This document shows, piece after piece, positions 5,033-20,000 of a stretch of 20,000 nt of DNA; position 1 is the first letter of the stretch; every line of letters begins with the position of its first letter. The notes below the pieces were generated by a model, which worked only from the letters and a program-made list of their open reading frames with translations, had not been told where the DNA came from and made no database searches. Location: positions 115,410-135,409 of the IMG/VR virus record IMGVR_UViG_3300032007_000033; one strand, given 5' to 3'. Position numbers and translations under genes: made by a program. The DNA is from an uncultured virus (IMG/VR IMGVR_UViG_3300032007_000033) (lineage: Duplodnaviria > Heunggongvirae > Uroviricota > Caudoviricetes).

Positions 5033-5443
5033 TCATCCTTGATTTTCAATGCAATGTTTCAAAGTGGTCTCCGACACACAACCAATTGAAGTGCAAAAAT
5101 AACCTCTTGTCCATAAATTATGTTTACCGCTCCAATAAAAGTTTATTAAATAATCGTTGTGATTTTTCCAAGCATAAAATGTAGAAATTTGTTTCAAATT
5201 ATGAATTATATCAGAAATTTGACAAGTCGGAGTAGCATTAATCATTAAATGAATATGGTCGGCTTTAGTTAAATCAATTTCCATAGTTTCTATTTTCCAT
5301 TTATTTTGTTTGGATTCGGCAATTTTCATATATGATTTTATATCTTCCGAGATATCTTTCAGACATTTCTTTTTATATTTTGTTGAAAAAATCATATGAT
5401 ACTTGATTTTATATTTTTCATGATTAAAATGTTCGTAATCCAT
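5033..5443 (-). CDS. tnpA: IS200-family HUH (Y1) transposase, probably inactive
   Basis: YHMIFSTKYKK, HUH motif DHIHLM, LWTRGYF. The C-terminal motif reads HCIENQ where YIENQ is expected. Confidence 0.92.
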   Translation of the reverse strand: MDYEHFNHEKYKIKYHMIFSTKYKKKCLKDISEDIKSYMKIAESKQNKWKIETMEIDLTKADHIHLMINATPTCQISDIIHNLKQISTFYAWKNHNDYLINFYWSGKHNLWTRGYFCTSIGCVSETTLKHCIENQG

Positions 5444-5523
5444 AAATACTCCTATGTAAAATTTAACTATTTTATATAGTTAAATTATTAACTATTTTAC
5501 ATAGAGGATTAACTATTTATTGT

Positions 5524-6819
5524 ATGACAGAATCGGAAAGATTACTGAAAAACAACAAGATTTCTCAAACAAAACATGAAACTATTTCACGACATGAAAA
5601 GATGAATTGTCGTACATATACTTTTAAAATACAAGAAAATTCATTAAACAATCAACAAAAAGAATTTCTTAAAATGATTTTCATTGAACAAAAATGGTTG
5701 AAAAATTATATTCTAAATTGGTGCGAGCAAGACAAAGAAAATAAATTGACCAAATTTGACACCAAAATTACAAAAATAACACATAAAGATAAAGTTATGA
5801 ATGATGTTGAGGTAGAATTAAAATATCTATCCGCGCAATCAAAACAATGCCTTGTATCAAGAATGTATTCAAACATCAAAACTTTGCATACCTTAAAATC
5901 TAAAGGATTACAAAAATGTGGAAAATTAAAATATTCAAAAGAAGAAAAAATAATTGATTTGAAACAATACGGATGTTCGCATAAAATTATTTCAAAAAAT
6001 AGATTCAAAATAAGCGGATGTAAAAAACCATTCAAAGTAAATGGTATGAATCAATTTATAGAGATTCCAAACATAGAGTACGCCAACGCTAGATTGTTAA
6101 ACCGAGCAGACGGATGTTATGTTCAATTAGTCTGTTACATTCCTAAAGAAAATAAAATTAAAAACGAAAAAATAAATAAAACCATAGGTATTGATTTTGG
6201 TTGTTCTACATCTTTCACAACAAGTGAAGGTGAGAAAATTAATGTGTCAATTCAAGAAAGCGAGCGATTGAAGCGTTTGCAAAGGAAATTCGCTAGACAA
6301 ACAAAAGGCTCAAAGAATTGGCACAAAACATTAGAATTAATCAAAAAAGAATACCAAAAACAAACCAATCGAAAAGATGATATTTCCAACAAAATTATTC
6401 ACAAATTTTCACAATATAAAACGATTGTGATTCAAGACGAGCAATTAAAAAATTGGTCAAAAAATCATCATGGGAAGGCAATTCAACATTCAATTTTGGG
6501 AAGAGTGAAATCAAAATTAAAGACCAAAGAAAATGTCGTGATTTTGAGCAAAACTGTTCCCACCACAAAACTATGCACGAATTGTGGAGTTTATCACGAT
6601 GAATTGAAAGTTTGGGATAGAACTTTCAAATGTGAATGTGGTGTTGAAATGGACAGAGATGTTCACGCTTCAAAAAACATGGTTTGGTTTTATGAAAATA
6701 ATGTAGGTGTGGAACGCACCAATATTAAGCGTGTGGAGATGGAAGCACTAGTTCTTGGGGTTATTCGTAACTCAAAGAACCAACTTGTGTCGAAGAAGCA
6801 CGAAGCCTACTCCCTTTAG
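5524..6819 (+). CDS. tnpB: RNA-guided endonuclease TnpB
   Basis: RuvC-I IGIDFG, RuvC-II region IVIQDE, zinc finger CTNC...CEC, RuvC-III DRDVHASKN. Confidence 0.92.
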   Translation: MTESERLLKNNKISQTKHETISRHEKMNCRTYTFKIQENSLNNQQKEFLKMIFIEQKWLKNYILNWCEQDKENKLTKFDTKITKITHKDKVMNDVEVELKYLSAQSKQCLVSRMYSNIKTLHTLKSKGLQKCGKLKYSKEEKIIDLKQYGCSHKIISKNRFKISGCKKPFKVNGMNQFIEIPNIEYANARLLNRADGCYVQLVCYIPKENKIKNEKINKTIGIDFGCSTSFTTSEGEKINVSIQESERLKRLQRKFARQTKGSKNWHKTLELIKKEYQKQTNRKDDISNKIIHKFSQYKTIVIQDEQLKNWSKNHHGKAIQHSILGRVKSKLKTKENVVILSKTVPTTKLCTNCGVYHDELKVWDRTFKCECGVEMDRDVHASKNMVWFYENNVGVERTNIKRVEMEALVLGVIRNSKNQLVSKKHEAYSL

Positions 6820-7537: not shown

Positions 7538-8455
7538 CTAGAAATCGAACAATTCCTTTTTAGTCTGACTGTCCGCGACCTTTACGCAAGCGCAACCTCT
7601 TTTCTTGAATTCCTCTAAAAAGGACTTCCTCTTATCGTCATAAAAGTAGACGATTTCCGCCCCTTCCATTCCATCGAATGTTCCGTCGAGAATGTAGCGA
7701 ACATGCAGAAAGTTCTTGTAGTCGAACGGATAGGATTGAATCCCCAAATCGTGGCAACCAAAACACATGTCGTCCTCGTTTCTAGTTCCTCCGCATATCG
7801 CCTCGATGTAGAATTTATCCTTGTCGATGTAGGGCTTCAACGCGTCAATAATTCCCTTTCTGTCCAACTCGGACTCCACGACCAATATTCTGTGCGGTTT
7901 CTCGATGCAGTCCTTTCCCAAGTACCTAGCGGAAATCAATGAGCGGTTTATCCATTTGGATATGTTCTTTCCGTTGCTTCCGTCGCGAGAGTCGTAAATC
8001 TTGAACGGATATGACACCGAGTAAGGGTCTACTCCTTTCGGCAAATTCGTCTTCAAACACTCGCAACCCTTGGTGTATTTCTTCATCTCCTCTTTCATGA
8101 CTTTCCATGTCGGACGACTCTTGTAGTAGTTCTTCAACTTGAAGTGGGCGGTCTTACAGTAATATTTTTGTCCGTCGTTCAACATGACTTCTCCGCAGAA
8201 ATCGTTGAGGTGGACGCCTATTCCCATTCCTTGGTAGTCAGGCAACACGACAAGCCTATGACCCATGTAAAAATCACGAATGTCTCCGTTCGGCAAGAGC
8301 AACATCGCCCTAAAACCGACCAATATATCGCCCCAATAGCATATGAACACTCGGCAAGGAGCCAAATTCGCCTCTTGGGTCAAATAATGATATTGCCTAA
8401 ATATTTTCCAAAGGCCTTCCTTCTTTGAGTTGTCCGCGACCTCGTAGACGGACAA
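7538..8455 (-). CDS. GNAT-fold acyltransferase domain protein (probably the C-terminal part of an ATPase fusion)
   Basis: Acyl-CoA-binding motif HRLVVLPDYQGMGIG; FRQYHYL; weak independent start; reachable by a -1 shift from the upstream ATPase. Confidence 0.75.
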   Translation of the reverse strand: MSVYEVADNSKKEGLWKIFRQYHYLTQEANLAPCRVFICYWGDILVGFRAMLLLPNGDIRDFYMGHRLVVLPDYQGMGIGVHLNDFCGEVMLNDGQKYYCKTAHFKLKNYYKSRPTWKVMKEEMKKYTKGCECLKTNLPKGVDPYSVSYPFKIYDSRDGSNGKNISKWINRSLISARYLGKDCIEKPHRILVVESELDRKGIIDALKPYIDKDKFYIEAICGGTRNEDDMCFGCHDLGIQSYPFDYKNFLHVRYILDGTFDGMEGAEIVYFYDDKRKSFLEEFKKRGCACVKVADSQTKKELFDF

Positions 8456-9114
8456 CTCAATTCTTTTTTTAGTTCAACTCCTCGGCAATCATAAACCTTC
8501 TCGTCGTCCAAGTCCACCACAATATCAGGTTCCATATAGTCTATATAATCCTTGTGGCAAGAGCAGAAAACGACCTTCTTCAAATTGTGCTTGACGATAT
8601 ACTTCTTCACTCCGATTACTGTGGAAATCGCCACATTTCTGTCTACGGTTGATGTGAACTCATCGAAACACATCTCCGACTGAATGTTCAAGGCCAAGTC
8701 CGCCCTAAAGCCCTCGCCCACAGAGAGCACATTTCTAGGACGGCACCAAGTAGGGACGGTGGACAATCCGACCGAAGCCAATCTGTCCATGCAATCCTCC
8801 TTGTCAGTGAAGTCGAAGTTGGAAATCACGGACTTGGAGCAATCATATTTCTTGATTTTCTTCTCGAAGAAAGGAAATTCCTTGAGAAGTTGGGATTTTC
8901 CCGCTCCGCTTCGACCGCAAATCACGCAAGTGCGATAGTCAATCTCGTTCAAAACCTTCGGCAGTCTATAAGGATAGAATTTACTCTCTCCCACGAATTC
9001 ATAGTCAAAATAAGATTGTGCCAACTGAGTGTATTCATCGCACGGAATCTTTGAAACCAAAGGCTCGTCCTTGCGTTGCAGAGAGCACAAAACTTTGCAA
9101 TCTTGATAGTTCAT
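8380..9114 (-). CDS. soluble ABC-type ATPase
   Basis: Walker A GRSGAGKS, signature LSVGEGFRA, Walker B MCFDE, H-loop CSCH; AAGGAG RBS; no permease nearby. Confidence 0.88.
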   Translation of the reverse strand: MNYQDCKVLCSLQRKDEPLVSKIPCDEYTQLAQSYFDYEFVGESKFYPYRLPKVLNEIDYRTCVICGRSGAGKSQLLKEFPFFEKKIKKYDCSKSVISNFDFTDKEDCMDRLASVGLSTVPTWCRPRNVLSVGEGFRADLALNIQSEMCFDEFTSTVDRNVAISTVIGVKKYIVKHNLKKVVFCSCHKDYIDYMEPDIVVDLDDEKVYDCRGVELKKELSCPSTRSRTTQRRKAFGKYLGNIII

Positions 9115-10961: not shown

Positions 10962-11027
10962 AATTTTGTCTCTCCTAATGAATAAATTTTGATAAAATAG
11001 TTAAAAATTCATTGCTCAATCTAGTGG

Positions 11028-11354
11028 AACGGCTTTAATGAGTTTAAATTTGCCAACGACCAAAACGAATTAAGCGAGTGGTATGACTTCTACACCTACA
11101 ACAACGATTCTTGGGTTATGACTTCCGCTCCTTATGATGGATTTATAACCGCTATATCTAGAGGAAGTAATGGAGCAAGCATTAACATTTTTGTAAATGA
11201 TATAATTATAGCCGCCAATTCAAACGCAGATTATGGAATAAATGGTCAAGGTGAAGTTGCGTTTAGAAAGGGTGATAAGTTAGAGATTACTAGTTCTTTT
11301 AGGGATAAAGGTTACATCTGTTTCTACGAAAAGCGCGACTACTCCAACCGATAA
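11028..11354 (+). CDS. silent variable C-terminal cassette 1 (family A)
   Basis: Frame opens at the site: NGFNEFKFANDQNELSEW...PYDGF...FRKGD...YEKRDYSNR; no RBS/ATG. Confidence 0.88.
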   Translation, partial: NGFNEFKFANDQNELSEWYDFYTYNNDSWVMTSAPYDGFITAISRGSNGASINIFVNDIIIAANSNADYGINGQGEVAFRKGDKLEITSSFRDKGYICFYEKRDYSNR

Positions 11355-11366
11355 TCATTCAAGTGG

Positions 11367-11714
11367 AACGGTCATTATGAGTTATTGAAAATCACCACCG
11401 ATGAACAATGGACAGGTCGCTATTGGAACGATGGAAAGAAAATTTATACAAGAATGATATCCAACACAAAATCCTTTATGTATCATTCTTTTGTCGAATT
11501 ATTTTCATATTCAGATTATAATATAGATACATTAATCTCAGTTCAAGAAACTCCTTTTTCTAATAATATAGATAGTTATTTCTTTAAATGTAACGCTTAT
11601 GGATTTGATGTATCATTTGATAGGAAAGTTAGAGCGTGGAACACTTACACAGGTGGTTCTACAGTAACTAAATCATACATATTAATTATTGAATACACCA
11701 AAACATCTTCCTAA
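11367..11714 (+). CDS. silent cassette 2 (family B)
   Basis: NGHYELLKITTDEQWTGRYWNDGKKIY...IEYTKTSS. Confidence 0.88.
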   Translation, partial: NGHYELLKITTDEQWTGRYWNDGKKIYTRMISNTKSFMYHSFVELFSYSDYNIDTLISVQETPFSNNIDSYFFKCNAYGFDVSFDRKVRAWNTYTGGSTVTKSYILIIEYTKTSS

Positions 11715-11722
11715 TTTAGCGG

Positions 11723-12049
11723 AACGGATGGAATGAGTTCGTTAATAATTGCGAGTTAAGCGAGTGGGAAGAGATTTCACTGAGCACTAACTCAAGCAAT
11801 CCAACCGTTATGACTTATGACGGATTCTTAATTGTAAGAAGTCCGAGTGGCTCAGGTGGCACTATATATGTTAATGGGTCTCCTATTGCTAATGCAACAC
11901 ATAGCGGGTACGGCGGAACGACATATGAAGGTTCAAGCGCAACTATACCTGTTAAGAAAAACGACGAAATATACAAGATTGTTGGAATGGGGGATACAAA
12001 TCCATCCTTTGTGGCCTACTACAAGAAACGCGACTACTCAAACAGATAA
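11723..12049 (+). CDS. silent cassette 3 (family A)
   Basis: NGWNEFVNNCELSEWEEISLSTNSSNPTVMTYDGF...YYKKRDYSNR. Confidence 0.88.
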   Translation, partial: NGWNEFVNNCELSEWEEISLSTNSSNPTVMTYDGFLIVRSPSGSGGTIYVNGSPIANATHSGYGGTTYEGSSATIPVKKNDEIYKIVGMGDTNPSFVAYYKKRDYSNR

Positions 12050-12062
12050 CTCACTCTAACGG

Positions 12063-12371
12063 AACGGCTTTAATGAGTTCGTGAATAACTGCGAGTTGGG
12101 AGAGTTGGAAGATATAAGCATTCCAACAAGTCCGATAACCATAATGCTTTATGACGGAGTTTTTTTAGGCACTGCTAGTTCCACAGAACCTTATGTAATA
12201 GACATTTTAGATGAAAACAATCAAATAATATTCGCTTGTATAGGTGGAGGAAGTTGGGGAGACACTTTCACTTTTCCTTTTAACAAAGGGGATAGAATGC
12301 GATTAAGGCAAGGTACTCCACTCTATAAAAAAGTTCGTTACTACAAAAAACGAGATTATTCCAACCGATAA
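12063..12371 (+). CDS. silent cassette 4 (family A)
   Basis: NGFNEFVNNCELGEL...MLYDGV...YYKKRDYSNR. Confidence 0.88.
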   Translation, partial: NGFNEFVNNCELGELEDISIPTSPITIMLYDGVFLGTASSTEPYVIDILDENNQIIFACIGGGSWGDTFTFPFNKGDRMRLRQGTPLYKKVRYYKKRDYSNR

Positions 12372-12383
12372 TCGTTATAGCGG

Positions 12384-12668
12384 AACGGCTACAACAATCA
12401 ACAATGGGTTCCTGATTACAGCAACTTATTGAATCCAGGTTCAACATCTTTTCCGTATACAGCGTCAGAAGATTGTTTCGTGATGTATTTTTGGGGTGTA
12501 AATGGTCAGTTGAAGATAGACGGAAATGCTGTTTCATGTTATACATCGCCAAGCGGCGTGTCCAATACAGTATTTTTTGGCTTTGTGCGTAAGGGGTCTG
12601 TTTTATCGACCTCAGCATCGAGCTTATCAAACGACCAGTTCCGAGTTTTTGGCTTGAGCAAAGTGTGA
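12384..12668 (+). CDS. silent cassette 5 (family A-like, PDY subtype)
   Basis: NGYNNQQWVPDYSNLLNPGSTSFPYTASEDCF...VRKGS. Confidence 0.85.
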   Translation, partial: NGYNNQQWVPDYSNLLNPGSTSFPYTASEDCFVMYFWGVNGQLKIDGNAVSCYTSPSGVSNTVFFGFVRKGSVLSTSASSLSNDQFRVFGLSKV

Positions 12669-12707
12669 TTTTGAAAAAAAGATATTTTAGCTGCCTAAAC
12701 ATAGAAT

Positions 12708-13031
12708 TTAGGCGGTAGGAACAGATTTATAACCAATGGTTCTCCAATTACCTGATAAACCTGCGGGGCCAAACATTCTAAATCCTGTCGTCTTTTTATA
12801 ATAATAGGCAAGATTATACCAAGGTCCACCCATACTATTACCTGAATCTGTCATAATGGACATAGAAACATTATAATTTATGTCGTCATACTCCAAAGGT
12901 AAAACTATATCGCTACCAACAGACGCGGTATTCCATTGTTCAAGCCTTCCATCTTCATACCAAATATACGATGGAGTTCCGTCATGGTTTATTGAAATTT
13001 GGTGTATTTTATTTCTGTCATTATATCCGTT
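12708..13031 (-). CDS. silent cassette 6 (family C, gp53-like tail-fibre tip)
   Basis: NGYNDRNKIHQISINHDGTPSYIWYEDGRLEQWNTASVGSDIVLPLEYDD...WRTIGY. Confidence 0.85.
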   Translation of the reverse strand, partial: NGYNDRNKIHQISINHDGTPSYIWYEDGRLEQWNTASVGSDIVLPLEYDDINYNVSMSIMTDSGNSMGGPWYNLAYYYKKTTGFRMFGPAGLSGNWRTIGYKSVPTA

Positions 13032-13047
13032 CCGTTAGAGTGAGCGA

Positions 13048-13362
13048 TTATTTATGCGGAACAAAAAACACTCCGTGTATTGGCATACCCGTTTGAGGAC
13101 GGTAATTTGTCATAACAACAGTATCGCCTTTATTAACCTTAAACATACAATTCAAAAATGTTTCATAATAATTATTTGTGGAACTTGCGCAAAGAACATA
13201 CACACCGTTTATCTGTAAATGCGTGTTAGCATAAGCAGCAACCATACCGCACAATTCTATCCACCCATTGTCAAGAACGGTATAATTGCTCAAATCCGAT
13301 TCAGAAATTTCCGTTCTGTTTGTGTAATCAGGGTTGTTAAATCCTATCTCATCATAGCCGTT
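13048..13362 (-). CDS. silent cassette 7 (family A-like, PDY subtype)
   Basis: NGYDEIGFNNPDYTNRTEISESDLSNYTVLDNGW...VNKGDTV...FFVPHK. Confidence 0.85.
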   Translation of the reverse strand, partial: NGYDEIGFNNPDYTNRTEISESDLSNYTVLDNGWIELCGMVAAYANTHLQINGVYVLCASSTNNYYETFLNCMFKVNKGDTVVMTNYRPQTGMPIHGVFFVPHK

Positions 13363-13375
13363 CCGCTAGAGTGAG

Positions 13376-13705
13376 TTATCTGTTAGAGTAGTCGCGCTTC
13401 TTGTAGTAACGAACTAGAGTATTTCGAATGTATCTATCAAGTGAACAATAAATTGTGTCGCCTTTTTTAATAGCGAGTTGAAGGAAATATCCGTAACGAG
13501 GTGAATCAGAAGCAAACATATAAGTCAACGCTTTCCCATTAATAACCAATTTGTATTCCCCACTGTTATCACCTTCTCCCTTTATACAGTCGAAAGTAAT
13601 GAATCCATCATAATCCATCACAGTCGGATTGTTGGAGTCTGTTGATAGAGTTATTGTTTCCCAATCGCTTAATTCACAGTTATTCACGAAGTCGTTATAG
13701 CCGTT
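13376..13705 (-). CDS. silent cassette 8 (family A)
   Basis: NGYNDFVNNCELSDW...MDYDGF...YYKKRDYSNR. Confidence 0.88.
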   Translation of the reverse strand, partial: NGYNDFVNNCELSDWETITLSTDSNNPTVMDYDGFITFDCIKGEGDNSGEYKLVINGKALTYMFASDSPRYGYFLQLAIKKGDTIYCSLDRYIRNTLVRYYKKRDYSNR

Positions 13706-13716
13706 CCGTTAGAATA

Positions 13717-14028
13717 TCACAGATTTCCTTTTACGAAAATCGAAGCTTCTACTTGCAATTTTCCGTTTCCACTATCTCCATATTGTCCATCCCAAATCTT
13801 AAAACTACTTGTTGTCACTGTTCCGATGTTAGTATGATAAGTTCCATTTCGTGCAGAATTTCCCATAGTAAGAATGACAGGTATTGAAGAATATGTTTTA
13901 GGATAATTGACGATTGCCGTTCCAATAGGAGCGGTTCCTCGAAATTCAAGAACACCGTCTATTTCTTCGCAATACAAAGTAAAACTATTGGTGCTTGTAT
14001 CACTCCAACGCTTTACATAATGACCGTT
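13717..14028 (-). CDS. silent cassette 9 (family C)
   Basis: NGHYVKRWSDTSTNSFTLYCEEIDGVLEFRG...VNYPKTYSSIPVI...IFVKGNL. Confidence 0.85.
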   Translation of the reverse strand, partial: NGHYVKRWSDTSTNSFTLYCEEIDGVLEFRGTAPIGTAIVNYPKTYSSIPVILTMGNSARNGTYHTNIGTVTTSSFKIWDGQYGDSGNGKLQVEASIFVKGNL

Positions 14029-14040
14029 CCACTTGAATGA

Positions 14041-14349
14041 TTATCGGTTGGAGTAGTCGCGTTTCTTGTAAAAGCGGACTCTTGAATACAGACTTCCTGA
14101 ATGGACTATTCGGATTCCATCATTTTTTATGAATGGAATGAAACCAAAACCTGTTCCTCCTTCTGGTCTATTGTCGCTAATTTCATTGCCATTGACAAAA
14201 ATTTTTAAGGTGGATGAACTTGATTGCGAAGTAAAACATAGCAAGAAACCATCATAACTCATAACAGTCGGATTATTTGGGTCTGTGCTTATAGATATGT
14301 TTTCCCACTCGCTCAACTTGCAATTATTAACAAAATCATTGTAGCCGTT
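14041..14349 (-). CDS. silent cassette 10 (family A)
   Basis: NGYNDFVNNCKLSEW...MSYDGF...FYKKRDYSNR. Confidence 0.88.
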   Translation of the reverse strand, partial: NGYNDFVNNCKLSEWENISISTDPNNPTVMSYDGFLLCFTSQSSSSTLKIFVNGNEISDNRPEGGTGFGFIPFIKNDGIRIVHSGSLYSRVRFYKKRDYSNR

Positions 14350-14398
14350 CCCCTAAATTAAATAACGAAATTTCGGCTATAAAAAATTCAAAAAAGTA

Positions 14399-14427
14399 TT
14401 GATTTTTAACCGCCCTAGATGTAAAAT
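14399..14427 (+). promoter_or_regulatory. probable sigma70-type promoter
   Basis: TTGATT, 17 bp, TAAAAT, upstream of the AAGGAG RBS and ATG 14462. Confidence 0.6.
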
Positions 14428-14461
14428 CGCATCCAAACAATACATATGCAAGGAGAAATAT

Positions 14462-15559
14462 ATGAAAATTTCAACAAAACCCTTTTTGGAAAATCTGAAG
14501 TCAATCAACAATGTGGTTTCTGATTTCGTCTACATCGATTGCACCGACGCGTCGAACTACGCGTTCTATGTGTCCACAGACACCCAAGCGATGAAAATTC
14601 CGCTTGAGATTTCCGATGTTTCGGATGAGGAAAAACAAGTCTATGTAATCAACAAGGTCGAATTCATCCACTTGGTTTCCTACGCCAAGGAATTTGTGGA
14701 GTTGAATGCGGACTATTCTTACGAAGCCAATGATGGTCAAGTGAAGGGAAAATTCGAAAAAAACGAGGGCTACTCCGACGAATTGGAGTCTAGGAAAGTC
14801 CTTTTTGACAACGAAAGCGAATACAAAGATTTCATGGAAGTTACTCCATCAATAATGAACGCAATCACAAGCGGTGGAATTTTCGTATCGCCTGACTCAA
14901 TCAAGCCGTCTGAAAGATTCTTGGACATTCAACACTCAAAAGTTTTCTCATATTCAAACTACAAAATTTACATGGACGGCATCGACATGGATGAGGAAAA
15001 AGAAGGCCTTTTGTCAATCGAAGTCTTGAAATCAATCCAATCGTTGGGAATCGGAGCGGTGGTCAAGAGCAACAACGACTCGTATCTCTGCACCAACGCG
15101 CAAAGAAGCATTTTCGAGTATTTCTCGACTCCCAATGATGTGGACTTTCATCCGCTTTTTTCGGAAGGATTCCAAAACAAACTAAAGGAAACCAAATCTT
15201 TCAACAAAATCGAGTTCAACATCGAGGAATTGAAGGCCAAATTAGACTACCTCTCGTTCTACGCCAACAAAAACCCCAACAAAATGTGCTTCTTGAACGC
15301 CAAAAAAGACGGAAAATTTTTCATTTCCACGGATGAAAACACCTTCGTGGAGGTTTCCGCCAAAATCGAAAAAAAGGAGCAATTCGAGGACATGTCGGTT
15401 CCAGTGGATTGCTCTTCAATGCAGTTGATTTTGTCAAAGGTCGGCAAGGAAGCGGAAGTTTGGAACATGTACATTTCAAACGACCCTTCCAAGAAACTCA
15501 TCGTCACCACATTTGGAGACACGGAAGAAACCGTAATCTTGGCCAAACTCAATGTTTAA
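14462..15559 (+). CDS. 365-aa protein, possibly a divergent DNA polymerase beta sliding clamp
   Basis: Start at ATG 14462 (AAGGAG RBS). Length, acidity and segments (MKISTKPFLENLKSI, IEFNIEELKAKL, VPVDCSSMQLIL, C-terminal TVILAKL) echo the DnaN layout. The CDS is solid; the function is tentative. Confidence 0.5.
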   Translation: MKISTKPFLENLKSINNVVSDFVYIDCTDASNYAFYVSTDTQAMKIPLEISDVSDEEKQVYVINKVEFIHLVSYAKEFVELNADYSYEANDGQVKGKFEKNEGYSDELESRKVLFDNESEYKDFMEVTPSIMNAITSGGIFVSPDSIKPSERFLDIQHSKVFSYSNYKIYMDGIDMDEEKEGLLSIEVLKSIQSLGIGAVVKSNNDSYLCTNAQRSIFEYFSTPNDVDFHPLFSEGFQNKLKETKSFNKIEFNIEELKAKLDYLSFYANKNPNKMCFLNAKKDGKFFISTDENTFVEVSAKIEKKEQFEDMSVPVDCSSMQLILSKVGKEAEVWNMYISNDPSKKLIVTTFGDTEETVILAKLNV

Positions 15560-15566
15560 ATTGACG

Positions 15567-15598
15567 AAAGGCGGTCTTTTTATGAGACCGTCTTTTTT
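15567..15598 (+). terminator. intrinsic terminator
   Basis: AAAGGCGGTCT-loop-AGACCGTCTTTTTT. Confidence 0.8.
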
Positions 15599-15673
15599 AA
15601 ATTTAACTATATAAAATGGAAAGGCCGAATTCACGATTCGGCCAATTCATCAAACTATAATAGAGGTTATAGA

Positions 15674-16873
15674 ATGACTAAGAAAATAGTTAAGAAATGC
15701 GAAGAAATTAAAATCTCAAAATTAAAAATAAACAACAAGTTAAAGAATGTGCAATTTTTATTGAAGAAAGAAGTGTTTGAACGGATGTGCGTAATATCCG
15801 ACTCTTGCTCCGACTTGTCGATGGCGTATGTTCCTTGGGTAGGAAAGATAGCCACGATAAAGAAGTCTGACGGAAAGAAAGAGGATGTATGTTTCCTTGA
15901 GCCTTGCGCGGAAAACAACTACGCGGACATCTCGTTCTTCGACGGAACGAAATACAAAAACTTCAAGGCTTGCCGAGTTAGAACATTGGAATCCGTTCCG
16001 ATGGACGGAAGCCTTCTCACATACTCGAAAGGAACAATCTCAGACTCCAACTTTTTTGTTTTCTATAGCGTCATTCCTAGCGAAATGGGAAAAATTTTGA
16101 TGATGACCGCCAAGACTTATGAATTCTTGACATCCAACAACTTCAACAAGCATATTAGAATGTTTAACATCAATGACGCGGACAAGGTGAAGAAGGCGTT
16201 TAATTTGTCCGACCGACAAATGATTTCAATCGACTTCTCCAAGGAATTTACAATGCGAGGGGACGAGAGAAAGAACGCAAGCGACAAAAGAAACGCTTGC
16301 TTGAAAACCCTCGCCTTGATGAAAAAAATCGACGAACGAAAGCCTTGCTCCAACTTGCGCACTCACTACGGACTCCAATACTCTGCGTTCAACTTGATGA
16401 GCGGAGAGATTCGACAGTTCCGCGACGCGGTCGCTAGAAACAATTTCTTTGATTCGTTGAACATGAAACTCGCGGACAACCACAACATTCTCTTGAATTG
16501 CAAAAACATGAGAAAAATCGTCGAGGGCGATAAAGTCGAGTCATTTAGGGCGAACATATTTGAGAGCGGTTGGGTAGTGTGTGAGTACATCGCGGATATC
16601 GTTGAGTTAGCCAAGTTCGTGAAATCATTGGTCATGAAATTGCTCGAAAAATCCAAGAGAACCGCCAAAAAGTTGCGCGAGATTTTCTCGAAAGCCAAGA
16701 AAAATTTCTTCAACATAATCAACAAAATTATAGACACTACAACCAAGATGAAATTCAATCTGCGGAAAAAATTCTCGTTCGCTAGAACTATGAAACTCTT
16801 GGAGACTGTTGTCGACGAAAAATCGCATCCTCTAAATTTCAAACTCAAACTCAAATTCAACAATTTGTGTTGA
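15674..16873 (+). CDS. basic hypothetical protein (399 aa)
   Basis: Long ORF with GAGG RBS and a Lys/Arg-rich C-terminus; no family recognised. Confidence 0.75.
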   Translation: MTKKIVKKCEEIKISKLKINNKLKNVQFLLKKEVFERMCVISDSCSDLSMAYVPWVGKIATIKKSDGKKEDVCFLEPCAENNYADISFFDGTKYKNFKACRVRTLESVPMDGSLLTYSKGTISDSNFFVFYSVIPSEMGKILMMTAKTYEFLTSNNFNKHIRMFNINDADKVKKAFNLSDRQMISIDFSKEFTMRGDERKNASDKRNACLKTLALMKKIDERKPCSNLRTHYGLQYSAFNLMSGEIRQFRDAVARNNFFDSLNMKLADNHNILLNCKNMRKIVEGDKVESFRANIFESGWVVCEYIADIVELAKFVKSLVMKLLEKSKRTAKKLREIFSKAKKNFFNIINKIIDTTTKMKFNLRKKFSFARTMKLLETVVDEKSHPLNFKLKLKFNNLC

Positions 16874-17145
16874 GAAAACGATTTAATTTTCATCTAATTT
16901 CCAATCTTCTCTCTTCCATTCTTTAAAGAATCATTTTAAAGTTCGTCTCAATCATATGAAAAATTCTTTCAATTTCATTGAATAAATTTTTTTCTTTTGA
17001 ATTTTAAAGAAAAAATAATAAATTTTATTTTAAAAATTCTTTTTCTTTAAAAATTTTTTAACAATATAAGATACCTTGCTAATTAAAAATCCATTTTTCT
17101 TTTCATTTTTTCAAGAAAATTTAAAGAAAAAAATGAAATTTTAAA

Positions 17146-17766
17146 TTAGCGGAGTATCTTTTTAGGCTTCTTCATTTTAGAAAAATAAACAATGAATCTT
17201 TTCATCGTATTCCACCTTACATTATAAAACTTGGCCAAGGAATTCACGCTCTCGCCTTCCTTAAATCTTCTCATTATCTCTTTTTGGTAGGGTCGGAGTT
17301 TCACTCCGTAGACGATTTCTCCCTTCTGTCGTCCTATCTTCTTTCCGTTCTTCCTAGCGACTGCCAATCCTAATTTGGTTCTCTCGGATATCAAATCGCG
17401 TTCTATTTGGGCGGAAAGTCCGAACGCAAACAACATTACTGTGGCGGTAATATTGCTTTTATCCAATGGGTTTAAGTCAAAATTGTTCTTGATTGCTATG
17501 ATTCTGACTCCTCTTTCCGCTATTTTGCTTACAATTTCGAACACCATTTTAAAACTTCTTCCCAATCGCGAAATTTCAGTCATGACCAATACATCGCCTT
17601 CTTGCAATTGTTGAATCAGTTGGCCTAAAAGCCTTTTGTGATAGTCAACAGTTCCGCTTTTCTTCTCGTAAACCCATTTGTCGATTTTAAATTTTTCGGA
17701 AATTGCGTCTTGTTGATTTTCAAGATTTTGTTCTTGAGTTGACACTCTTAAATAACCGTAGTTCAT
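17146..17766 (-). CDS. serine recombinase (resolvase/invertase family); putative shufflon invertase
   Basis: YGYLRVST (catalytic Ser), EKKSG, GDVLVMTEISRLGRS, AQIERDLISERTKLGLAVARKNGKKIGR, C-terminal HTH (SVNSLAKFYNVRWNTM); AGGAG RBS. Confidence 0.95.
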   Translation of the reverse strand: MNYGYLRVSTQEQNLENQQDAISEKFKIDKWVYEKKSGTVDYHKRLLGQLIQQLQEGDVLVMTEISRLGRSFKMVFEIVSKIAERGVRIIAIKNNFDLNPLDKSNITATVMLFAFGLSAQIERDLISERTKLGLAVARKNGKKIGRQKGEIVYGVKLRPYQKEIMRRFKEGESVNSLAKFYNVRWNTMKRFIVYFSKMKKPKKILR

Positions 17767-17795
17767 GTAAAACTCCTTTTTAATTGATTGACAAT

Positions 17796-17836
17796 CTTAT
17801 ACAATATATTTTTATTTTTGTCAAGTAAAATTATCA
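17796..17836 (-). promoter_or_regulatory. invertase promoter
   Basis: TTGACA (17824-17819), 17 bp, TATAAG; 21-bp block identical to 4666-4686. Confidence 0.7.
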
Positions 17837-17861
17837 TTTTTTTTTATATCCAATCTAGTCG

Positions 17862-18230
17862 AACGGTTGGAATGACTTCGTGAATAATTGCGAGTTGGGT
17901 GATATAGAAGATTACACAAACATAATTCCGCATGAAACAAGTGTGCCACAAAATTATTACACGGCGGAATACGATGGGTTTGTTGAGATTTCATTTGGGT
18001 CTAGTTCAACAACATCAAGGACAAAAACCTACTTGATAATTAACAACACCATCGTAGGATATGGAGGAACAGTCGGATATTTGAATAATTGCGGAGAAAC
18101 AGGAGGAAATATATGTGCTCCTGTCAAGAAAAATGATGAAATTAAAGTAACAACAATTACAAGTCCAACTTATTTTGAATTCAAAATTTATTGTAGATTT
18201 TATAAACTTAGAGATTATTCTAACAGATAA
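17862..18230 (+). CDS. silent cassette 11 (family A)
   Basis: NGWNDFVNNCELGDIEDY...EYDGF...PVKKND...FYKLRDYSNR. Confidence 0.88.
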   Translation, partial: NGWNDFVNNCELGDIEDYTNIIPHETSVPQNYYTAEYDGFVEISFGSSSTTSRTKTYLIINNTIVGYGGTVGYLNNCGETGGNICAPVKKNDEIKVTTITSPTYFEFKIYCRFYKLRDYSNR

Positions 18231-18243
18231 CTCACTCTAGCGG

Positions 18244-18597
18244 AACGGCCAAGTTGAGTTGCTTGGTTATTCGACAGAAGAGAGATGGACGGGCAAATAT
18301 TGGACTGACGGAAAAAAGATATATTCAAAAACATTTAGTGTAACTGCTAGCGGTGATTATACATTAAATAATGTTGACACTGTTATAAACTTTGAAGCCA
18401 CCGCTTTGAATAACAATTCATATTGGAGACCCTGTGACGGATTCTTAACTACTCTTGGGAGCAACCAAATAAACGGAACTACCATTGATGTTAATTATGC
18501 AGCAAACAAATTCCATATCGGCTACTTGGGAGAAGGTATGGGATATACATTCACAAAGGCCAATGTAACAGTTTATTACACTAAGACCACAGACTAG
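18244..18597 (+). CDS. silent cassette 12 (family B)
   Basis: NGQVELLGYSTEERWTGKYWTDGKKIY...YYTKTTD. Confidence 0.88.
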   Translation, partial: NGQVELLGYSTEERWTGKYWTDGKKIYSKTFSVTASGDYTLNNVDTVINFEATALNNNSYWRPCDGFLTTLGSNQINGTTIDVNYAANKFHIGYLGEGMGYTFTKANVTVYYTKTTD

Positions 18598-18600
18598 CGG

Positions 18601-18739
18601 TTGACAAAACCGCATTACTAGCCTTATAATGCCATTATTCGGGTGTGTTGACCCATTTGCACAGATGTGTCAAACCAACAAATAATCCTTGCGGAGACAT
18701 CACGGCACTGCGAATGCCGTCTTCGCAAGGATTTTTTTT
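18601..18739 (+). ncRNA. putative small structured RNA with its own promoter and terminator
   Basis: TTGACA (18601), 18 bp, TATAAT (18625-18630); hairpin TTGAC-CATTTG/CAGATG-GTCAA; long hairpin AATCCTTGCG...ACGGCA/TGCCGT...CGCAAGGATT followed by a U run. Confidence 0.55.
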
Positions 18740-19082
18740 AGCGGTTGGAGTAGTCGCGCTTTTTGTAAAAATTGCCAAAAGATTTAAAACTTCCAGCTTC
18801 AAGGCGTGTCAAAGAGCAATAAACTGAATCCCCTTTTGAAATTGCCAATGATTGTGAAACAGTAAAATTATAAAGTGATGAAACATTGTAATTATCAAAA
18901 AAATCAACTCCATTTATGTAAATGTGAAAATCTGAACCATTGCCTCCAGTTCCTGTTGTATTGAATCCTGCTCTTATGAATCCGTCATAATCCATTATTG
19001 TCGGATTATTGGGGTCAGTTGATAAAGTTATGTTTTCCCAACCGTCCAACTCACAATTATTAACGAAGTCGTTATGGCCGTT
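18738..19082 (-). CDS. silent cassette 13 (family A)
   Basis: NGHNDFVNNCELDGW...MDYDGF...FYKKRDYSNR. Confidence 0.88.
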   Translation of the reverse strand, partial: NGHNDFVNNCELDGWENITLSTDPNNPTIMDYDGFIRAGFNTTGTGGNGSDFHIYINGVDFFDNYNVSSLYNFTVSQSLAISKGDSVYCSLTRLEAGSFKSFGNFYKKRDYSNR

Positions 19083-19090
19083 CCGCTATA

Positions 19091-19831
19091 TTATAACTCT
19101 CGTTCTTTGTAGAACCGAGCTGAAAACATAGAAGTAGCAGAATCTGTTGGACCAATCATTTGAATTGAAAAAATATCACCCTTACTTACATAAGTGGAAT
19201 AAGAAAATTTATTAGCACTTCCACTTGTCGAAAAAATTTCAATTCCATTAATTGTTATACTTCTGTTATAAGATGTTTCAATTCCAAAATATAAAAAACC
19301 GTCGTAAGGACATACATAAGGAAAATAATTTGAAAATCGAGTATCTGCCCACGTATAGATTACTTCCACTTCGCTCAAATGCTCGCTCTCGCTTTGGCCG
19401 TTCGCATAGATTGAGTAAGTCGTTGATGAGAGGACTAATGGGTTACCAATAACCACAAACGCAGGATTTCCGCTTCCGTCGTCGCTCGTGTAATACATCT
19501 CCAACACAGTGTTGGGGTCGAGAACTTTGTACACAGTCGTTCCGCTTTCATCCATCGCGTGAATGGGAAGCGGTTGCAAAGTTCCGTTCACATTCGCGTC
19601 GACTTGAATTCCGTTCAAAGTCATGTAGTCAGTAGAGTTGGAGGCGTCGTGTCCTTGCGAGAACACTACCTTGAACGCCAAGTTGGTGTCAGGCGCGCTC
19701 TCGTCAAATCCCAACGGAAAAGTGACGCTCTTGGCCGAGCCTTTCGCTTGGCTCGCGATTAAAACATTTCCGAATCCGCATAAAGAGTAGTCCTTGTTCG
19801 TGGCTTCCTTCTTGAATGAATCTATGTACAT
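19091..19831 (-). CDS. expressed shufflon gene: 143-aa constant region plus cassette 14; probable tail-fibre/receptor-binding protein
   Basis: AGGAGG RBS and ATG. A crossover site is read in frame as SIYA-NG-QSE at 19389-19414. The C-terminal part (PYDGF...ING...VSKGD...RFYKER) is homologous to the silent family A cassettes. Confidence 0.88.
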   Translation of the reverse strand: MYIDSFKKEATNKDYSLCGFGNVLIASQAKGSAKSVTFPLGFDESAPDTNLAFKVVFSQGHDASNSTDYMTLNGIQVDANVNGTLQPLPIHAMDESGTTVYKVLDPNTVLEMYYTSDDGSGNPAFVVIGNPLVLSSTTYSIYANGQSESEHLSEVEVIYTWADTRFSNYFPYVCPYDGFLYFGIETSYNRSITINGIEIFSTSGSANKFSYSTYVSKGDIFSIQMIGPTDSATSMFSARFYKEREL

Positions 19832-19914
19832 ATTGTTCCTCCTAAAATTCTACAAATAAAATAGTTAATGTTTTGGGATTTTAGATGAAAAAATTCGGTT
19901 AGTCAATCTATGCG

Positions 19915-20000
19915 AACGGTTGGAATGACTTCGTGAATAATTGCGAGTTGGGTGATATAGAAGATTACACAAACATAATTCCGCATGAAACAAGTGTGCC
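19915..20000 (+). CDS. cassette 15 (partial; identical to the start of cassette 11)
   Basis: 19913-20000 is identical to 17860-17947. Confidence 0.8.

Follow-up and report, generated by a model that had tools for sequence, protein, structure and literature searches.

Fifteen 26-base repeats as probable crossover sites of a multiple-inversion switch in a rumen phage

The final 20 kb of a 135,409-base viral contig (IMG/VR IMGVR_UViG_3300032007_000033, positions 115,410 to 135,409; linear class, estimated completeness 64%), hereafter the window, contains an array of 26-base repeats interspersed with short open cassettes and a gene for a small serine recombinase. Very probably the repeats serve as crossover sites at which the phage's own Gin-like recombinase drives a multiple-inversion switch. 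With more than two sites, lying in either orientation, and with silent cassettes in frame with a single constant 5′ part, the array shows the Min-type pattern, and the Min multiple-inversion switch of p15B is the closest known system. Each site would be bound by a recombinase dimer and cut exactly at its central AA. The public runs with matching DNA are labelled as bovine or other gut metagenomes, and the array is hosted by a rumen phage.

The 26-base sites and their cassettes

A search for GAACGG plus context identified 15 sites of the form TCAaTCTAGCGG-AA-CGGCTATAATGA, eight on the plus strand and seven on the minus strand, with the consensus TCAATCTAGCGG-AA-CGGCTATAATGA. Their number and extent are as given in a first-pass annotation of the window, 11016 being the first base of the first site and 19928 the last base of the last. 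We number the left arm −12 to −1 and the right arm +1 to +12 on either side of the AA core, which places CGG at +1 to +3. A weight matrix built from the 15 sites and run over both strands of the entire contig scored them at 28.7 to 39.8, and the best scores elsewhere were 10.5 (the reverse strand of one site) and 10.2 (an unrelated place). The letters G-AA-CGG are fixed by ascertainment, being those by which the sites were first found. When these six core letters were removed, the matrix found no further site in the contig and gave high ranks to the sites' reverse strands, which itself points to dyad symmetry. Across the 15 sites, a logo-type comparison of the kind suggested in the annotation showed information content to be high from −12 to +12 and to drop outside.

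The same annotation had described a 12-AA-12 dyad of the hix/gix type but of a different sequence, and this description is borne out: the axis lies on the AA, with outer TCA/TGA blocks and an inner block. With the axis on the AA and 12-base arms, 100 of the 180 arm positions pair, which is the best result among 112 combinations of axis and spacer. The other choices gave a mean of 46 pairs (standard deviation 14), and the next three best had the same axis with another spacer. When the ascertained core is excluded, 74 of 135 positions pair, compared with 26% in 20,000 random genome 26-mers, and the consensus arms pair at 9 of 12 positions (binomial P ~6e-4). The 26-mer that had been quoted as an example is present on the minus strand at 13374-13349, and the reverse complement of its right arm is indeed identical to its left arm at 8 of 12 positions. 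Left and right arms assort independently: left arm TCACTCTAACGG occurs with two right arms, and right arm CGGTTGGAATGA with two left arms. Such varied combinations are expected if exchange occurs between the arms.

At all 15 sites the cassette is found on the CGG side of the AA, and its direction follows the polarity of the AA. Counted from the AAC, the 14 complete cassettes all remain open for 94-122 codons, as would follow from the annotation's proposal that exchange at an Asn codon preserves the reading frame, and each stops a few bases short of the next site. The Asn codon is AAC at 15 of 15 sites, compared with 659 of 1633 Asn codons (40%) in 69 long open reading frames (ORFs) of the phage. 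An open upstream frame (149 codons) exists at site N only. Eleven of the 15 left arms (sites A, C-H and J-M) carry an in-frame TAG or TAA at −6 to −4, and a further three are immediately preceded by a stop; the constant-type left arm has TAT at −6 to −4, which keeps the expressed gene open. The untranslated left arms mirror the right arms, with TC at −12/−11 against GA at +11/+12 and TA at −6/−5 against TA at +5/+6. Since the stop-bearing arms are untranslated yet keep the motif in mirrored form, the constraint must act on the DNA. The further suggestion that the NGxx[DE] peptide is a by-product of the DNA site stands in part. It is favoured by the mirroring of the untranslated arms and by the uniform use of AAC. 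Y-x-I-Y-A-[ND]-G, on the constant side, does not vary across the protein family; this exceeds what the silent left arms need, and it is therefore likely that the protein is also under constraint there.

The array begins on the left with site A (11016..11041; TCAATCTAGTGG-AA-CGGCTTTAATGA), the first of five consecutive plus-strand sites, which heads an open cassette of 108 amino acids (aa) at 11028-11354. It is followed by site B (11355..11380; 115 aa, 11367-11714), site C (11711..11736; 108 aa, 11723-12049), site D (12051..12076; 102 aa, 12063-12371) and site E (12372..12397; 94 aa, 12384-12668). Five minus-strand sites come next. Site F (13018..13043) heads a cassette of 107 aa running from 13031 down to 12708, and site G (13349..13374), the example quoted in the annotation, heads one of 104 aa that runs down to 13048. 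The cassettes of site H (13692..13717; 109 aa), site I (14015..14040; 103 aa) and site J (14336..14361; 102 aa) run down to 13376, 13717 and 14041, respectively. Beyond the invertase gene, site K (17850..17875; 122 aa, 17862-18230) and site L (18232..18257; 117 aa, 18244-18597) are on the plus strand, and site M (19069..19094; 114 aa, down to 18738) is on the minus strand.

Site N (19389..19414, minus strand) is the expressed junction. Its constant left arm TCAATCTATGCG encodes S-I-Y-A without a stop and is followed by the AA and by cassette N, of 103 aa, which runs down to 19091. The constant 5′ part (143 aa; 19403..19831, minus strand) is the head of the expressed 246-aa gene at 19091-19831. 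Upstream of it on the same strand is a promoter-like TTGACT-17-TAAAAT (19878..19906), followed by AGGAGG and then ATG; its −35 element overlaps the outer end of the left arm of site K2 (19903..19928, plus strand), which is a second copy of the constant-type left arm. The constant part, the Shine-Dalgarno sequence and the promoter-like match thus form a module between N and K2 that is flanked by two inverted left-arm copies. TTGACT-17-TAAAAT is a candidate promoter of the constant part, judged by sequence; with 12 promoter-like consensus matches, compared with 10.3 expected from shuffled sequence, such a match is within what chance would give. The last 72 bases of the contig (19929..20000, plus strand) are identical to the start of cassette K (17876-17947).

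The recombinase and related systems

The DNA invertase is a small serine recombinase of 206 aa, encoded inside the invertible region at 17146..17766 on the minus strand. Its residues 3-143 match the catalytic domain PF00239 (E 1.3e-32), and residues 1-192 match phrog_125, a 'DNA invertase' family (3.3e-45). Gin is its closest solved sequence relative in PDB (2.7e-18). Ser9 of the recombinase, within YLRVSTQEQ, aligns with Ser9 of Gin, a residue that is alanine (S9A) in Gin chain 3uj3 (PMC3575834). Identity to Gin is about one-third, amounting to ~50 of 147 aligned residues by alignment count and 32% by Foldseek. The structure predicted from an alignment of six relatives has a helix at 106-139, a linker and three helices at 159-197, the last three having a predicted local distance difference test score (pLDDT) of 86-91. 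In Foldseek the model aligns over 193-206 columns with DNA-bound chains of gamma-delta, Tn3, Sin and Gin (E down to 7e-11). The predicted architecture is that of a small serine recombinase, consisting of a catalytic domain, a long helix E and a C-terminal three-helix domain. Among 50,697 deposited phage records, even the nearest invertases do not exceed 36% identity across most of the length. The recombinase alone, used as a query against viral contigs, recovered no relatives, and an alignment of two recombinases was needed to find them. No tyrosine recombinase family was matched among the 26 window ORFs scanned against Pfam.

At the helix-E positions that act as a gate in Hin, this lineage has invariant Phe113, Phe115 and Ile121, which correspond to Hin 107 and 109 and to Gin 114, and a hydrophobic Met/Leu/Ile pair at 111/112 (Hin 105 and 106), which is Met and Leu in the present protein. 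In Hin and Gin, Fis-independent activity has been obtained with F105M/L/I, H107Y, M109F and M114V (PMC4513852, PMC3575834). As the helix-E residues equal or resemble these substitutions, the use of Fis and an enhancer seems unlikely, and the sequences hint at a recombinase lineage that does without both.

The constant part of the expressed gene has 60 relatives among 5.8 billion protein clusters. In 57 of the 60, GNP.V...IYA[ND]G (41 with N and 16 with D) is followed by unrelated sequence, and the alignment has no invariant column beyond Gly145. Some of the variable ends behind the constant part of these relatives contain Collar, Gp53-like_C or Gp10_C domains. The constant domain itself has no match among the 50,697 deposited phage records. 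On the viral contig L011/L056, the gene with the constant part lies downstream of a minor tail protein gene and has a two-site layout with an invertase next door. On L098, a contig of a Treponema metagenome-assembled genome (MAG), the constant domain ends a 2220-aa protein and is accompanied by two sites and an invertase. A dedicated invertase gene is present beside the sites in all relatives whose neighbourhood was read (L011/L056, L014, L017 and L098). Spirochaetes are not known to have Fis. In the model of the expressed 246-aa protein, the constant domain is beta-rich and confidently predicted, and cassette N forms a beta-sandwich; the model returned no Foldseek match at E <= 0.001. The expressed product is presumably a small tail-fibre-type (receptor-binding) protein.

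The two central bases follow a pattern of one core per system. The core is AA at all 15 window sites, at four further sites on L094, a 10-kb metagenome contig that carries the array beyond the window, and at both sites of the relative L056. It is GA at all recognised sites in eight systems (L029, L049, L053, L055, L070, L093, L098 and L099). The window weight matrix transfers poorly to the GA-core relatives, where it found only some of the sites. We therefore turned to six GA-core viral loci with a rule blind to the core, which counted any SG-RA-CGG 9-mer found up to 2.5 kb behind the constant site. Such 9-mers had GA in nine cases and AA in one, whereas those elsewhere in the six loci had AA in 18 cases and GA in four (Fisher one-sided P = 2e-4). 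The single AA 9-mer inside the 2.5-kb zone, in L053, lacks the arm pattern and was counted as a miss. The first core base is the sole site position that differs between systems (A or G) and it is constant within each, which is expected of an overlap that must match for rejoining. In characterised systems, a mismatched core prevents ligation in the recombinant orientation (PMC4817059).

Several candidate loci were set aside in these searches. A 17-mer comprising the constant-type left arm and the core matched five loci in viral contigs, three of which were chance matches with no site. A 15-mer with R matched 76 loci, among which a regular expression for the constant part flagged seven systems; the remainder were taken as chance, and L029, situated on the same contig as L014, was added to the seven by hand. 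L019 has a constant-type site, and no partner site was found within its 10.4 kb. On L015, a 218-kb viral contig with a related invertase, PYYANGIWVI units at 7600-8350 were rejected as sites because they are seven direct tandem repeats in one orientation within one gene, ~117 bases apart; the true sites on this contig were not found. L099, a contig from a MAG labelled Methanobrevibacter, has the constant domain and two GA-core sites; incorrect binning seems likelier here than an archaeal host.

Recombined junctions and competing explanations

In the proposed mechanism, a recombinase dimer would occupy each site with one subunit per 12-base arm, and two oppositely oriented sites would pair. The four strands would be cut at the central AA/TT with a 2-base stagger, and half of the complex would rotate by 180 degrees before the ends rejoin. 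AA is not its own reverse complement, and the polarity of each site is thereby fixed. Because the core and the frame (AA-C = Asn, GGN = Gly) are the same throughout, any right arm with its cassette can join any left arm in frame. A cassette brought to the left arm of site N would become the C-terminal tip of the expressed protein, and a flip of the N-K2 module may turn the gene head from the left cassette bank to the right one.

Evidence that such exchanges have taken place comes from contigs, not raw reads, with 14 joints listed from the longest pieces only. Run X3 contains a related phage, most pieces of which are 95-99% alike to the window; X1 and X2 are possible source runs. One X3 contig joins 11026 to 14352 on opposite strands, and the nine letters shared at the joint are −2 to +5 of sites A and J. 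Another joins 13032 to 17847, again on opposite strands, so that site F meets the left arm of K across 11 unaligned letters. On the third contig, 13357 and 19078 (sites G and M) are linked without a change of strand, with 11 shared letters. In both X3 and X6, one contig crosses from the constant part through site N into cassette N, and another diverges from the window at 19397 and 19399, respectively (+4 and +2 of site N).

Two further metagenome contigs provide additional junctions. In the short contig L097, a constant part that is 72% identical is fused to a copy of cassette G that is 96% identical; the constant-type left arm is combined with the right arm of G, so that the switch lies within −1 to +4. 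L094 is identical to window positions 16898-19928 over 3031 of 3031 bases. After site K2 it has a different cassette where the window has the start of cassette K, and the three forms share −2 to +12 only. As L094 and the window are identical up to K2, the same left arm has two partners in identical DNA, and the window contig probably ends at K2 and the copy of cassette K because the assembler met two population variants. Past the window end, L094 has cassettes at sites equivalent to 19915, 20265 and 20594 (plus strand) and 21482 (minus strand). With one more site near the end of that contig, the array has at least 19 sites in total.

Overall, the junction brackets leave 7 to 16 bases, and the exchange is placed within 7-9 bases around the AA. 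The first-pass annotation had located strand exchange at the AA and had suggested that recombinant junctions be sequenced. In the contigs, every examinable junction is consistent with this and the switches map around the AA, with a resolution of 7-9 bases rather than the AA alone; the remaining precision comes from serine-recombinase chemistry.

A number of observations count against crossover sites cut at the AA by a Gin-like recombinase. Individual sites are imperfect dyads that pair at just 4-9 of 12 positions, and the right arms of the GA-core relatives are A-rich with little symmetry. No helix-turn-helix family scored above the Pfam cut-off in the C-terminal part of the recombinase, with CENP-B_N the sole, sub-threshold match. 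The expressed 246-aa protein has no Pfam or PHROG match, and in a wide fold search the likeness of cassette N to C1q/TNF-type heads and phage tail tips was middling (Z 6.2-7.7). The exchange point is not resolved to a single base, and natural variants cannot narrow it below −1 to +3, given that G-AA-CGG is invariant. Only three of the 14 listed joints are at sites, all of them in X3; one of these (13357/19078) has a shorter side of 22 letters and, being on the same strand, could represent a deletion instead of two inversions. A further X3 joint, 13690 to 13017, falls just beyond two right arms (+14 and +13). Four X6 joints lie within cassette bodies or at cassette ends, and six X1/X2 joints have sides of 20-24 letters, mostly in an A+T-rich stretch. 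No site joint is among those listed for X1 and X2, the possible source; contigs from these runs do break at sites, which exact repeats of ~30 bases would explain too.

The resolution of the junctions leaves room for the repeats being real serine-recombinase sites that are cut, with a stagger, elsewhere within the invariant G-AA-CGG(C) and not at the AA. All the brackets would accommodate such a cut, and CGG at +1 to +3 is as invariant as the AA. The dyad axis, by contrast, lies on the AA and on no neighbouring position, and the small serine recombinase sites that have been tabulated or solved are cut at the dyad centre (PMC3241671 Table 3). The first core base, moreover, varies between systems and never within one, the pattern of an overlap required for rejoining. 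We regard a cut away from the AA as improbable.

The cassettes could instead be reshuffled by general homologous recombination over longer repeats formed by cassette ends and starts, the 26-mer being a conserved coding or linker motif. Some site pairs do lie in longer inverted repeats (118 nt at 80%, 63 nt at 90% and 61 nt at 92%), and it is in cassette bodies or ends that several of the X6 joints are found. This explanation does not account for the conservation of untranslated left arms and their dyad symmetry with the right arms, nor for the X3 joint between A and J, two partners that have in common no more than a site-centred repeat of 49 nt at 73%. In L056, with its two sites, hardly anything beyond the 26-mer is repeated in inverted form, and a dedicated invertase accompanies the sites in every relative whose neighbourhood was read. 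Homologous recombination over longer repeats is accordingly very unlikely. There is equally little to recommend a fossil array in which sites and cassettes persist after recombination has ceased, for although the probable source runs X1 and X2 list no site joint, one left arm has two junction forms in the 100%-identical DNA of the window and L094, X3 and X6 each contain two forms of the constant junction, the intact recombinase ORF retains the catalytic serine and all 14 cassettes are open. Active crossover sites exchanged around the AA by the neighbouring invertase remain the best explanation of the array.

Neighbouring genes and known inversion switches

Two plus-strand ORFs of 386 and 399 aa (14399..16873) occupy the invertible region between sites J and K. 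Neither has a Pfam, PHROG or convincing PDB sequence match, and both are conserved, being >95% alike in runs X3 and X6. The segment between the 399-aa ORF and the invertase gene (16960-17147) is A+T-rich, with direct repeats 105-117 bases apart; its word depth in X1/X2 is many times that of its neighbours, probably owing to low complexity. Outside the array, the window contains an IS200/IS605-type element (5033-6819) comprising a Y1 transposase gene (5033-5443, minus strand; PF01797 2e-24) and an adjoining TnpB-like ORF (5524-6819, plus strand) with OrfB_IS605 and Cas12f1-like TNB domains. Overlapping minus-strand ORFs at 8380-9114 and 7538-8455 (together 7538-9114) match phrog_11143 at positions 8-191 and 213-326, respectively, and judging from these matches they may be one split or frameshifted gene. 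A D12-class N6-adenine DNA methyltransferase is encoded at 611-1432 (PF02086 6e-22; phrog_56).

Sites of the Din family have a 12-2-12 structure in which the core, AA or GA, is the place of strand breakage (PMC3241671, PMC4817059). According to the table in PMC3241671, the core is AA in hix, cix, pix, mix and nix and GA in gix and bix. The statement in the first-pass annotation that Hin, Gin and Cin sites share a central AA is hence right for hix and cix and needs correction for gix. The window sites have in common with those of Hin, Gin, Cin and Pin a length of 26 bp, imperfect 12-bp arms and a non-palindromic core, which is AA in hix, cix and pix and GA in gix (PMC3241671). Two-site Din switches also share a small serine recombinase with a C-terminal DNA-binding domain, and the relatives L056 and L098 have the exact two-site Din layout of a constant part, two opposed cassettes and an adjoining invertase. 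The differences are in the arms, which are TCAATCTAGCGG and CGGCTATAATGA here and do not fit the dix consensus TTC---AAAC- / -GTTT---GAA (PMC3241671 Table 3), and in the use of Fis and an enhancer, which seems unlikely in the present system.

Min of p15B shares more features with the array. There too, a single serine invertase is accompanied by more than two 26-bp 12-AA-12 sites lying in either orientation, and the silent 3′ cassettes are joined in frame to the single constant 5′ part of a tail fibre gene (PMC3241671, PMC6109161). Min has six mix sites as described in these sources, compared with 15 in the window and at least 19 in the phage, and its half-sites TTCCCC.AAACC / CGTTTT... are unrelated to TCA.TCTAGCGG / CGGCTATAATGA. 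Unlike Min, the present system has a recombinase only about one-third identical to Gin, and this gene and two others sit inside the invertible region. Two left arms enclose its promoter-plus-constant module, which has a cassette bank on either side, and the constant domain matches none of the deposited phage records searched.

Shuffling of many C-terminal cassettes by inversion is also the principle of the R64 plasmid shufflon. The Rin shufflon of Bifidobacterium prophages shuffles many C-terminal cassettes of a receptor-binding protein in the same manner (PMC6109161). Both of these use tyrosine recombinases and short asymmetric sites, such as the 11-bp rix, in contrast to the serine recombinase and dyad sites described here. 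We found no phage serine-invertase shufflon with more than six sites in the literature (>5 million open papers), which is weak evidence that none has been published, and a 2023 survey states that viruses were not scanned (PMC9881135).

Taken jointly, the relatives, helix E and the array raise the possibility of a separate, Fis- and enhancer-free lineage of Gin-like invertases in rumen and gut phages and on a Treponema MAG contig that maintains a shufflon larger than any yet noticed for a serine invertase, its 19 or more sites lying in two banks that flank a flippable module of promoter and constant head. We put this combined interpretation forward tentatively and regard it as less likely than not. 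If the lineage does work without Fis and an enhancer, it would need its own way of favouring inversion over deletion.

The site would represent a second, independent sequence solution to the Hin/Gin geometry, with the same 12-2-12 structure and AA/GA cores but different arms, and a comparison of the two site types could separate geometry from read-out in serine-invertase sites. The natural split between AA and GA cores in sister systems offers a ready test of the core-matching rule, and the recombinase and its site would be a new orthogonal pair for inversion-based genetic tools. For the phages themselves, a switch of this type would now be known outside the enterobacterial phages in which such switches were defined, and it would allow rumen phages to switch host range on a much larger scale, with at least 14 tips in one window.

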